A stretch of 56,494 nt of DNA from an uncultured Mycobacteriaceae bacterium (GTDB lineage: Bacteria; Pseudomonadota; Alphaproteobacteria; DSM-16000; Inquilinaceae): NCBI GenBank assembly GCA_964615535.1, contig CAZTNV010000001.1:3012-59505 (forward strand), read 5' to 3'. Below are positions 35,296 through 56,494 of the stretch, piece by piece; the stretch's first letter is position 1; every line of letters starts with the position of its first letter. The notes under the pieces were generated by a model. That model had not been told where the DNA came from and ran no database searches. It worked only from the letters and a program-made list of their open reading frames with translations. The position numbers were made by a program, and so were the translations under genes.

Positions 35296-36132
35296 TCAGC
35301 CTGCGGCACCGGCGGCACCGGCGCGATGGGGTGCGCAGCCGGGGTCCAGGGCAGGCAGAAATGCGCGCCGCGGCAGATGATCCGGCAGCGCCTGGACGAT
35401 CGCGTCGAGCACCGCGGCCGGATCCTCGCTCAGATAGAAATGCGTGCCGGGGAAGGTCGCGAGGCGGAAGGAGCCACCCGCCTGGTGCGACCAGCCGGCC
35501 ATCTCCTCCAGGCTTACCTCCTCATCCTCGGTTCCCGTCAGGGCGAGCATGGGCGCCTCGAGCGGCGTGCCCGGCACGTGGCGGTGCAGTTCGGTCATCG
35601 CGAAATCCGCCCGCAGCACCGGCTCCACGAGACGCATGAGCTGGGGATGCGCCAGAATCTCGGGCGCGGTTCCGCCCAGGCCGTCCAGCGCGGCGCACAG
35701 CGCAGGAAAGGGCAGCGCGTGGCGCCGGCGCGCCGGGTGGATGTCCCGGTCGGGCGGCTGGCGGCCCGAGACGGCGAGCAGCGCGGGCGAGAGCGCGTAG
35801 CGGTCGCGCAGCAGGCGCGCCGTCTCGAAGGCGATCAGGGCGCCCAGCGAATGGCCGAAGAGCGCGAAGGGCCGATCGAGCCGGGCGCGCAGCGCCGGCG
35901 CCAGCGCCGCGACGAGCGCGCGCGCCTCGGTGAAGGGTGCCTCGGCGCGGCGCAGCCCGTGGCCGGGCAGTTCGACCGGCAGCAGGGCAAGGCCGCGCTG
36001 CGCCGCCGGTGCCATCCAGGGCCGGTAGAAGGCCGCCGTGCCGCCGGCGAAAGGGAAGCAGAAGAGGAGCGTCTCCGCCGCCTCCGGCGCGAAGGGGAAC
36101 CACGGCTCGGCGTGGGCTCGAAGGTCTTGCAT
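35296..36132 (-). CDS. Type II thioesterase (YbtT/GrsT family)
   Basis: LLFCFPFAGGTAAFYRPW and nucleophile elbow LFGHSLGALIAFE. GGAGA lies 6 nt before the ATG at 36132. Confidence 0.85.
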   Translation of the reverse strand: MQDLRAHAEPWFPFAPEAAETLLFCFPFAGGTAAFYRPWMAPAAQRGLALLPVELPGHGLRRAEAPFTEARALVAALAPALRARLDRPFALFGHSLGALIAFETARLLRDRYALSPALLAVSGRQPPDRDIHPARRRHALPFPALCAALDGLGGTAPEILAHPQLMRLVEPVLRADFAMTELHRHVPGTPLEAPMLALTGTEDEEVSLEEMAGWSHQAGGSFRLATFPGTHFYLSEDPAAVLDAIVQALPDHLPRRAFLPALDPGCAPHRAGAAGAAG

Positions 36133-36145
36133 CGCAGGTCTCCGA

Positions 36146-56045: not shown

Positions 56046-56494
56046 GACGCGGCCTCCGTGATCGGCGTCCTGGACGCGATGCGCACAAGGAAGTCGGCGA
56101 TGGCCCGCGCGACGGCAGGCGCAGCCGGCTCGCGCAGCAGGCCCCAATGGTCCGCGTCGATGGCGAGCGCCTCGGCGCGCGCGGGCAGGATCTCCGCCCA
56201 GGCAGGCTCGGGGACGGGCCAGCCGGCCTCGCGCCGCGCCGCCCAGAGGCAGAGGGCCGGGCAGGTAACAGGCACGGGCCGGAAGGCGGCGAGCGCGCCG
56301 ATCTGCCCCTCGACGATCCGCGCGAGCCAGGGCGGTGCCTCGTGCCCGAGTGCCGCGGCACGCGCCGCGAAGGCCGCATGCGCCCGCCAGTCCACCGGAT
56401 CGAGCAGCACCAGCCCCGCGACCGGCAGACCCGTCCGTGCCCGCCGCGCGGCGAGAGCCGCTGCCAGCACCGCACCGGAGGACCAGCCGCCGAG
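56042..56494 (-). CDS. C-terminal thioesterase (alpha/beta hydrolase) domain of an upstream gene; 3' end only, gene enters from beyond the window end
   Basis: Reverse translation of 56471-56494 gives LGGWSSGA (GxSxG elbow), in frame with track ORF 56042..56470. DADHWGLL supplies the catalytic His. The stop overlaps the FAAL gene start. Confidence 0.75.
   Translation of the reverse strand, partial: LGGWSSGAVLAAALAARRARTGLPVAGLVLLDPVDWRAHAAFAARAAALGHEAPPWLARIVEGQIGALAAFRPVPVTCPALCLWAARREAGWPVPEPAWAEILPARAEALAIDADHWGLLREPAAPAVARAIADFLVRIASRTPITEAAS

Follow-up and report, generated by a model that had tools for sequence, protein, structure and literature searches.

Biosynthetic genes of the locus

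The window analysed here (the whole stretch of 56,494 nucleotides, positions 3,012 to 59,505 of contig CAZTNV010000001.1) carries a siderophore-type gene cluster built around a large hybrid enzyme, the megasynthase, which resembles MicC of the micacocidin pathway (mic) of Ralstonia solanacearum. Genes were called by frame-specific analysis of the G+C content at third codon positions (GC3) combined with Pfam. The cluster occupies a minus-strand run from 56494 to 31003, in which neighbouring genes share ATGA or short overlaps at most and the other gaps are shorter than 20 nt, and all of its open reading frames (ORFs) were unbroken with high GC3. The G+C content of the whole window was 74%, which agrees with the very high value noted in a preliminary description of this DNA. 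From these sequences, the region can with good confidence be regarded as the core of a micacocidin-type siderophore/antibiotic cluster of a high-GC Gram-negative host, the cluster having its closest relatives in Acetobacteraceae.

The megasynthase gene (43539..56045) encodes a hybrid of an iterative polyketide synthase (iPKS) and a nonribosomal peptide synthetase (NRPS) of 4168 aa, as judged from Pfam, motif inspection, and alignment with MicC. Its start is ATG 56045, which overlaps the TGA of the upstream gene as ATGA; the start at TTG 56147 given in the preliminary description was discarded. Pfam detected two AMP-binding domains, four PP-binding domains, KS, AT, KR, two Condensation domains of the heterocyclisation type (Cy), and a methyltransferase (MT)-like stretch. 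Together with direct reading of the sequence, this gave the domain string FAAL-ACP-KS-AT-KR-ACP-Cy1-A(MT-like insert)-PCP-Cy2-PCP, where FAAL denotes a fatty acyl-AMP ligase. The string is the one described before, except that the earlier account, while correct in calling the A domain cysteine-type, did not mention its insert.

The FAAL domain (aa 1-585, 54291..56045, minus strand as for all domains below) had only fatty acyl-AMP ligases as its best NCBIfam and PDB matches and was 45% identical to the FAAL of MicC. The KS (aa 705-1130, 52656..53933) contains DTACSSS, EAHGTGT, and IGHLE, with the Cys/His/His residues intact, and the AT (aa 1211-1530, 51456..52415) contains GHSVGE and HAFH and is of the malonyl type. 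The KR (aa 1771-1990, 50076..50735) retains the NADPH motif and the catalytic Tyr and Asn. No DH/THID or product-template domain was found in the megasynthase with Pfam. Cy1 (aa 2125-2570, 48336..49673) has the motif DLLIAD and matched HMWP2 Cy1 in the PDB (7ry6), and Cy2 (aa 3590-4030, 43956..45278) has the motif ENMLFD and matched Irp2 Cy2 (7jtj). All four carrier serines were present, and the motifs of the KS, AT, A, and Cy1 domains were all unbroken.

The specificity code of the A domain (aa 2575-3490, 45576..48323) was read at GrsA positions 235-517, for which the GrsA reference itself reproduces DAWTIAAICK. The resulting code, DLFNLSLIWK, is that of cysteine, as had been anticipated; it compares with DLYNFSMIWK in MicC and with the cysteine code DLYN(L/M/F)S(L/M)IWK across the homologues including MicC. 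The MT-like insert (aa 3046-3440, 45726..46910) is about 395 aa long and is placed between A8 and A9. Its GxGxG motif is degenerate (LEARFG), as in the insert of every megasynthase homologue, which is expected for the epimerase-type MT-like domain of PchE, HMWP2, and MicC (PMC6604713). No adenylating domain other than the FAAL and the Cys A domain was found in the window, and no Chorismate_bind domain, indicative of a salicylate synthase, was detected by Pfam in any ORF scanned, in agreement with the earlier statement that a salicylate synthase and a YbtE-like ligase are missing.

Downstream of the megasynthase, a MicG-like PKS of 1794 aa (38138..43522, minus strand) was identified by Pfam and by alignment with five homologues as KS-[AT remnant]-cMT-KR-ACP, the protein ending at the ACP. 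Its KS, cMT, KR, and ACP were recognised as described before, and the degenerate AT reported there was reduced to a remnant: the segment of about 430 aa between KS and cMT gave no Pfam AT match even at E<=0.1 and contains no GHSxG. The PKS was AT-less in all six homologues compared, including that of Ralstonia. The segment is nearly absent from the Ralstonia and Rhizobium homologues, and a partial Pfam AT match, spanning profile positions 3-119 of 319, remains in the Haematospirillum homologue alone; the PKSs of Siccirubricoccus and of a TARA scaffold resemble the window PKS in this segment. The KR has His at the position of the catalytic Tyr (AHAGAN), and this was common to all six homologues, again including Ralstonia. 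The same Tyr-to-His change has been described for the HMWP1, mic, and agr enzymes (PMC12997852).

Three further enzymes previously named for the locus, a reductase, a free methyltransferase, and a YbtT-like type II thioesterase (TEII), were all recovered by Pfam, TIGR01761, and PDB matches. The thiazolinyl imide reductase of the YbtU/Irp3/PchG type (36999..38141, minus strand, 380 aa), the start of which overlaps the PKS stop as ATGA (38141), was assigned by Pfam Irp3-like_C, by TIGR01761 (286 bits against a cut-off of 188.8), and by its best PDB match, YbtU/Irp3 (4gmg, 2.5e-56). The free S-adenosylmethionine-dependent methyltransferase (36146..37012, minus strand, 288 aa) was placed using Pfam, its start codon, and homologues; its nearest PDB relative was MitM (1e-15), and the MT-thioesterase (TE) fusion proteins of Ralstonia and Haematospirillum have a homologue of it as their N-terminal part. 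The TEII (35296..36132, minus strand, 278 aa) matched Pfam Thioesterase and, in the PDB, RifR, a RedJ-like enzyme, and YbtT.

The gene directly upstream of the megasynthase is represented by its 3' end, which encodes the last 150 aa of a protein ending in a TE domain (56042..56494, minus strand; weak Pfam Thioesterase match, motifs LGGWSSG and DADHW). This fragment aligned to residues 1477-1621 of an NRPS of Neoroseomonas at 53% identity and was 60% identical to the C-terminus of an NRPS of Enterovirga. In both relatives, the gene directly upstream of the MicC homologue encodes a Cy-A(MT)-PCP-TE NRPS with a cysteine A code. The fragment thus probably forms the end of a MicH-like Cy-A(MT)-PCP-TE NRPS extending past 56494. 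As this coupled, TE-ending gene runs off the edge at 56494, the assembly line is cut by the window.

Relatives and known assembly lines

Using the first 3000 residues of the megasynthase, a tblastn search of plasmid records retrieved a gene on the megaplasmid of R. solanacearum SL3103 with 88% query coverage, and further matches in Haematospirillum jordaniae, Rhizobium rhizoryzae, Burkholderia gladioli, Undibacterium, and Serratia symbiotica. A Klebsiella plasmid match, considered as a possible source of the yersiniabactin (ybt) genes, proved to be an unrelated NRPS/PKS cluster. The best megasynthase matches in a scan of species-representative genomes were those of Neoroseomonas terrae and Enterovirga rhinocerotis. 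A six-way megasynthase alignment was collinear in every domain (15 domains and linkers compared with SL3103 MicC), with identities to the window enzyme of 65.6% for Neoroseomonas, 62.3% for Enterovirga, 47.0% for Ralstonia MicC, 44.8% for Haematospirillum (which lacks the KR), and 42.5% for Rhizobium. For both the reductase and the megasynthase, the nearest homologues were from Acetobacteraceae (Siccirubricoccus, 66%; Neoroseomonas, 61-66%), and the best identity to any relative was 62-66%, with no closer one in the collections searched. These homologues and the G+C content make an alphaproteobacterial host, possibly of the Acetobacteraceae, plausible. Look-ups of identical sequence gave no match for the megasynthase or the TEII, and for the reductase they gave only a Logan contig of 1.8 kb from SRR3311151. 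The HMWP2-like NRPS preceded by a FAAL and a single PKS module, which had been compared to the logic of MicC from the domain order, was therefore confirmed by collinearity with MicC at 47% identity.

A neighbour-joining tree was built from the 173 KS domains of all retrieved loci, in which no 6-MSAS-type KS was included as a reference. The six MicC-type KS domains, that of the window among them, were monophyletic in 99 of 100 bootstraps. The raw identity of the window KS to that of MicC was 52%, a level that many modular KS domains also reached or exceeded.

The gene order was also shared. In Siccirubricoccus phaeus, a MicC-like enzyme (4160 aa) is followed by a PKS (1791 aa), a reductase, an MT, a TE, a membrane-fusion protein (MFP), and a resistance-nodulation-division (RND) permease, an order identical to that of the window, and the TARA scaffold has the gene order of the window minus the RND pair. 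In Haematospirillum, the order is two ABC transporter genes, NRPS, MicC-like enzyme, PKS, reductase, MT/TE fusion, AraC, and TonB-dependent receptor (TBDR); two ABC exporter genes ahead of the upstream NRPS were found in both Neoroseomonas and Haematospirillum. Homologues of the PKS, reductase, MT, and TE were also present in Rhizobium rhizoryzae. The clusters of S. phaeus, N. terrae, E. rhinocerotis, and the H. jordaniae plasmid are uncharacterised and have the same gene order as the window.

The H. jordaniae plasmid (NZ_CP014527.1, 19791-31091, from a human blood isolate) encodes a MicC-like enzyme of 3766 aa without the KR and its structural subdomain, and none of its residues aligned to aa ~1556-2011 of the window enzyme. 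Because the KR is missing, the polyketide starter of this relative should differ from a 6-alkylsalicylate.

The closest characterised system is mic of R. solanacearum, in which MicC is an iPKS forming 6-pentylsalicylate without a THID domain (PMC4797705), the MicC FAAL has been assayed in vitro with a C6 substrate (PMC4334309, PMC11837247), and the roles of MicC, MicG, MicH, and the MT-like epimerase have been described (PMC6604713). MicC has the same FAAL-ACP-KS-AT-KR-ACP-Cy-A(MT-like)-PCP-Cy-PCP string as the window megasynthase, the mic PKS is likewise an AT-less KS-cMT-KR(His)-ACP protein, and their KS domains belong to one clade. Both clusters include a reductase, a methyltransferase, a thioesterase, and a TBDR, and the terminal Cys NRPS is probably represented in the window by the TE fragment. 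The MicC enzymes were 47% identical, the reductases 45%, and the PKSs about 42%. The two clusters differ in arrangement. In the window, as in other Alphaproteobacteria, a single operon has the order NRPS-MicC-PKS-reductase-MT-TE; in Ralstonia, MicC is followed by the reductase and an MT-TE fusion, whereas the PKS and NRPS are separated from it within the locus and are encoded on opposite strands. The MT and TE are separate genes in the window and fused in Ralstonia, and an MFP/RND pair lies within the operon of the window, unlike mic. The Ralstonia PKS has extra terminal ACP and Cy domains, which the window PKS lacks.

In the SL3103 megaplasmid (CP022791.1), the MicG-type PKS region at 6051-13444 was not in the gene table of the record. 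It consists of two overlapping frames (6051..11144 and 10760..13444), the second of which encodes two ACPs and one Cy domain. The split suggests that the gene of this strain is frameshifted or a pseudogene, or that its sequence contains an error.

Compared with ybt, the NRPS half of the window megasynthase follows the plan of HMWP2, in which one Cys A domain with an MT-like insert serves two Cy-PCP units, the likeness to HMWP2/Irp2 being drawn from PDB fragments. The YbtU-type reductase and the YbtT-like TEII are common to ybt and the window, as is an AraC regulator with a Fur box, in the window a Fur-box-like site. The salicylate synthase YbtS, YbtE, and the N-terminal ArCP of ybt are not in the window, and a FAAL-iPKS stands in their place. 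HMWP1 is a single PKS-NRPS with a functional AT, whereas its equivalent at this locus is split into an AT-less PKS and a separate NRPS, which probably has its own A domain; the free methyltransferase of the window also has no counterpart in ybt.

Two shorter members of the family are known, massiliachelin (Massilia sp. NR 4-1, BGC0002687) and agrochelin II (Stappia, BGC0002764; MIBiG identifiers from PMC12997852). Both pathways have MicC-type and MicG-type enzymes and a reductase, and production is iron-repressed. By their published descriptions, with which the comparison was made, they have no MicH-type third cysteine module, and their products contain two rings; massiliachelin is reported without MicH (PMC6604713, PMC10291242). 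Agrochelin II comes from the alphaproteobacterium Stappia (PMC12997852), and the mic-type family accordingly occurs in Alphaproteobacteria. Unlike both clusters, the window has a TE-ending probable homologue of the MicH module, with the last 150 aa visible, directly upstream.

Iron regulation, transport, and neighbouring genes

Downstream of the TEII, the minus-strand run continues with an RND membrane-fusion (adaptor) protein (34110..35318) and an RND efflux permease of the AcrB family (31003..34113). Both were assigned by Pfam/NCBIfam, and both are also found at the Siccirubricoccus locus, where the adaptor fills the same slot. On the plus strand, family profiles identified an Sfp/HetI-type phosphopantetheinyl transferase (30126..31022, start codon not fixed) and a TonB-dependent siderophore receptor (25017..27236), and Pfam identified ExbB (27508..28704), ExbD (within 28550..29134), and TonB (29131..30036, with a TonB_C domain), for which the starts are approximate. 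An AraC-family regulator (23824..24879, plus strand) completes the set.

A search with a 19-bp Fur consensus gave AAGAATGATTATCATTCGC (23820..23838, not assigned to a strand) as the best match of the window, with 15 of 19 consensus positions. In 200 first-order Markov simulations of the window, which served as the null, a score >=15 was reached in one. The site falls at the 5' end of the AraC ORF, in the 40-mer with the highest A+T content of the window. The Fur-box-like site, the AraC regulator, the TBDR, and the TonB-ExbBD genes, all of which had been listed as neighbours of the cluster and were found, adjoin it and represent in silico signs of iron regulation and a siderophore role. The site overlaps the first in-frame ATG of the AraC ORF (23824), and the later ATGs at 23845 and 23872 make the geometry of start and operator ambiguous.

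In the left 22 kb of the window, the Pfam scans showed respiratory genes but no gene connected with the cluster. An alternative-complex-III-like set (a multihaem cytochrome c7-type protein, a large 4Fe-4S protein, an NrfD-type subunit, and a cytochrome c) was observed at 6468-13627 and 18581-22536, followed by cytochrome oxidase genes. The COX1 core had no match above 72% identity in the protein collection; its matches were scattered over several phyla and gave no taxonomic information, and several were named as subunit I+III fusions. Mrp/Pha-type cation/proton antiporter genes (Proton_antipo_M twice, Oxidored_q2, and MrpF) lie on the minus strand at 1083-5675. A TAT-signal protein annotated as gluconate 2-dehydrogenase subunit 3 and a GMC oxidoreductase (15196-17725) were found between the respiratory genes.

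Predicted pathway and product

A pathway was drawn up by homology to the Ralstonia mic, Yersinia ybt, and Pseudomonas pch systems. The FAAL would adenylate a fatty acid of short or medium length, which is hexanoate for MicC, and load it onto the first ACP, after which the single KS-AT-KR-ACP module would iterate, with three malonyl extensions, one ketoreduction, and aromatisation yielding an ACP-bound 6-alkylsalicylate. The one Cys-specific A domain would charge both PCPs, Cy1 and Cy2 would form two thiazoline rings, and the MT-like insert would probably epimerise the first ring to D. The YbtU-type reductase would then turn the second ring into a thiazolidine, which the free methyltransferase most likely N-methylates. 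The last assignment was made by elimination, because in micacocidin the gem-dimethyl and terminal C-methyl groups are accounted for by embedded MTs and the MicC insert by epimerisation. The AT-less PKS, loaded in trans by the AT of the megasynthase or by FabD, would add one malonate, with dimethylation by the cMT and reduction by the His-type KR. Finally, the upstream NRPS, the TE end of which lies in the window, would add a third, C-methylated thiazoline and release the product. The TEII may edit mis-primed carriers, the MFP/RND pair may export the product, and the TBDR with TonB-ExbBD may import the ferric complex, with expression governed by a Fur-controlled AraC regulator.

Every micacocidin-type feature that could be tested was found, the MicH-type gene through its last 150 residues only. 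Several points weigh against the assignment. The 150-aa TE fragment is all that the window holds of the upstream NRPS. At 47% identity to the characterised MicC, starter length, iteration number, and stereochemistry cannot be read from the sequence. In the Cy2 signature (ENMLFD, aa 3726-3731), Glu replaces the first Asp of DxxxxD, a change common only to the Neoroseomonas homologue; the other four homologues have Asp, and in this respect the window differs from mic. The best NCBIfam matches of the free methyltransferase were O-methyltransferases, all below their cut-offs; an O-methyltransferase role was considered on this account, and the substrate stays inferred. The TBDR adjacent to the cluster was only 26-27% identical to the cluster receptors of Ralstonia, Haematospirillum, and Rhizobium, and the uptake component would therefore be non-orthologous across the mic-type family. 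The pathway and product assigned to this locus are predictions.

The number of rings depends on the gene cut by the window edge. The assembly line might stop after the PKS, as for agrochelin and massiliachelin, and yield an alkylsalicyl-thiazoline-N-methylthiazolidine-hydroxy-dimethyl-propanoate with two rings and no third thiazoline. There is no third Cy module inside the window, the PKS ends at an ACP from which the free thioesterase could release the chain, and truncated family members are known in Massilia and Stappia (PMC6604713, PMC12997852). We nevertheless consider a two-ring product improbable, since the ATGA-coupled upstream gene ends in a TE that is 53-60% identical to an NRPS C-terminus, and the corresponding gene of Neoroseomonas, Enterovirga, and Haematospirillum encodes a Cy-A(MT)-PCP-TE enzyme. 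The bis-thiazoline product guessed in the preliminary description overlooked this TE fragment and the third cysteine module that relatives carry there. Because the fragment matches the third-cysteine-module NRPS of the syntenic relatives, the predicted product is most likely a three-ring micacocidin-type molecule and not a bis-thiazoline.

The polyketide part could also be read differently. If the PKS module were not iterative, a single extension of the fatty acyl starter would give a 3-hydroxyacyl-primed (lipo-)thiazoline metallophore instead of an alkylsalicylate; the enzyme has one module with neither DH/THID nor product-template domain, and iteration is unreadable from sequence. This is slightly less probable still than a two-ring product, as MicC itself yields 6-pentylsalicylate with the same domain set and no THID (PMC4797705), the window KS falls inside the well-supported MicC-type clade, and the iPKS domains are all collinear with those of MicC. 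A silent or decaying cluster, for which the unrecognisable PKS AT, the Tyr-to-His KR, and the Glu-for-Asp change in Cy2 would be signs of a non-functional line, is very unlikely, given that AT loss and the KR His are invariant in all six homologues including that of micacocidin-producing Ralstonia (PMC12997852), that the ORFs are intact with high GC3 and tight junctions, and that all carrier serines and the KS, AT, A, and Cy1 motifs are unbroken.

The deviant domains had been taken as a hint of a new product. As the AT-less PKS and the His-type KR are invariant in the family, including the micacocidin producer, they are, by this sequence comparison, mic-type family traits compatible with production and no sign of a new product. 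The novelty suggested earlier was likewise overstated, with micacocidin, massiliachelin, and agrochelin II already described. The micacocidin-type cluster of the window is an uncharacterised, moderately divergent relative within this family and no new kind of pathway.

It is possible, and we put this forward tentatively, that the product is a structurally new micacocidin congener, differing in alkyl length or ring chemistry and the first from an Acetobacteraceae-like lineage, with the AT of the iterative module acting in trans on the PKS. A difference in chain length could arise because the FAAL is only 45% identical to that of MicC, and one in ring chemistry because of the ExxxxD motif of Cy2. 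If so, the locus would offer a compact system for the study of AT sharing between proteins and of non-canonical ketoreduction.

Molecules of the micacocidin type chelate iron and have antimycoplasma and antibacterial activity. Each added member of the family broadens the set of natural variants, for instance in stereochemistry or in the starter chain, and adds to the FAAL/iPKS loading modules that can be engineered. The AT-less module and the His-type KR matter to annotators, who might otherwise label both domains as dead. Together with its syntenic relatives, the locus points to a family spread across Alphaproteobacteria as a conserved operon of NRPS, MicC, PKS, reductase, MT, and TE genes.

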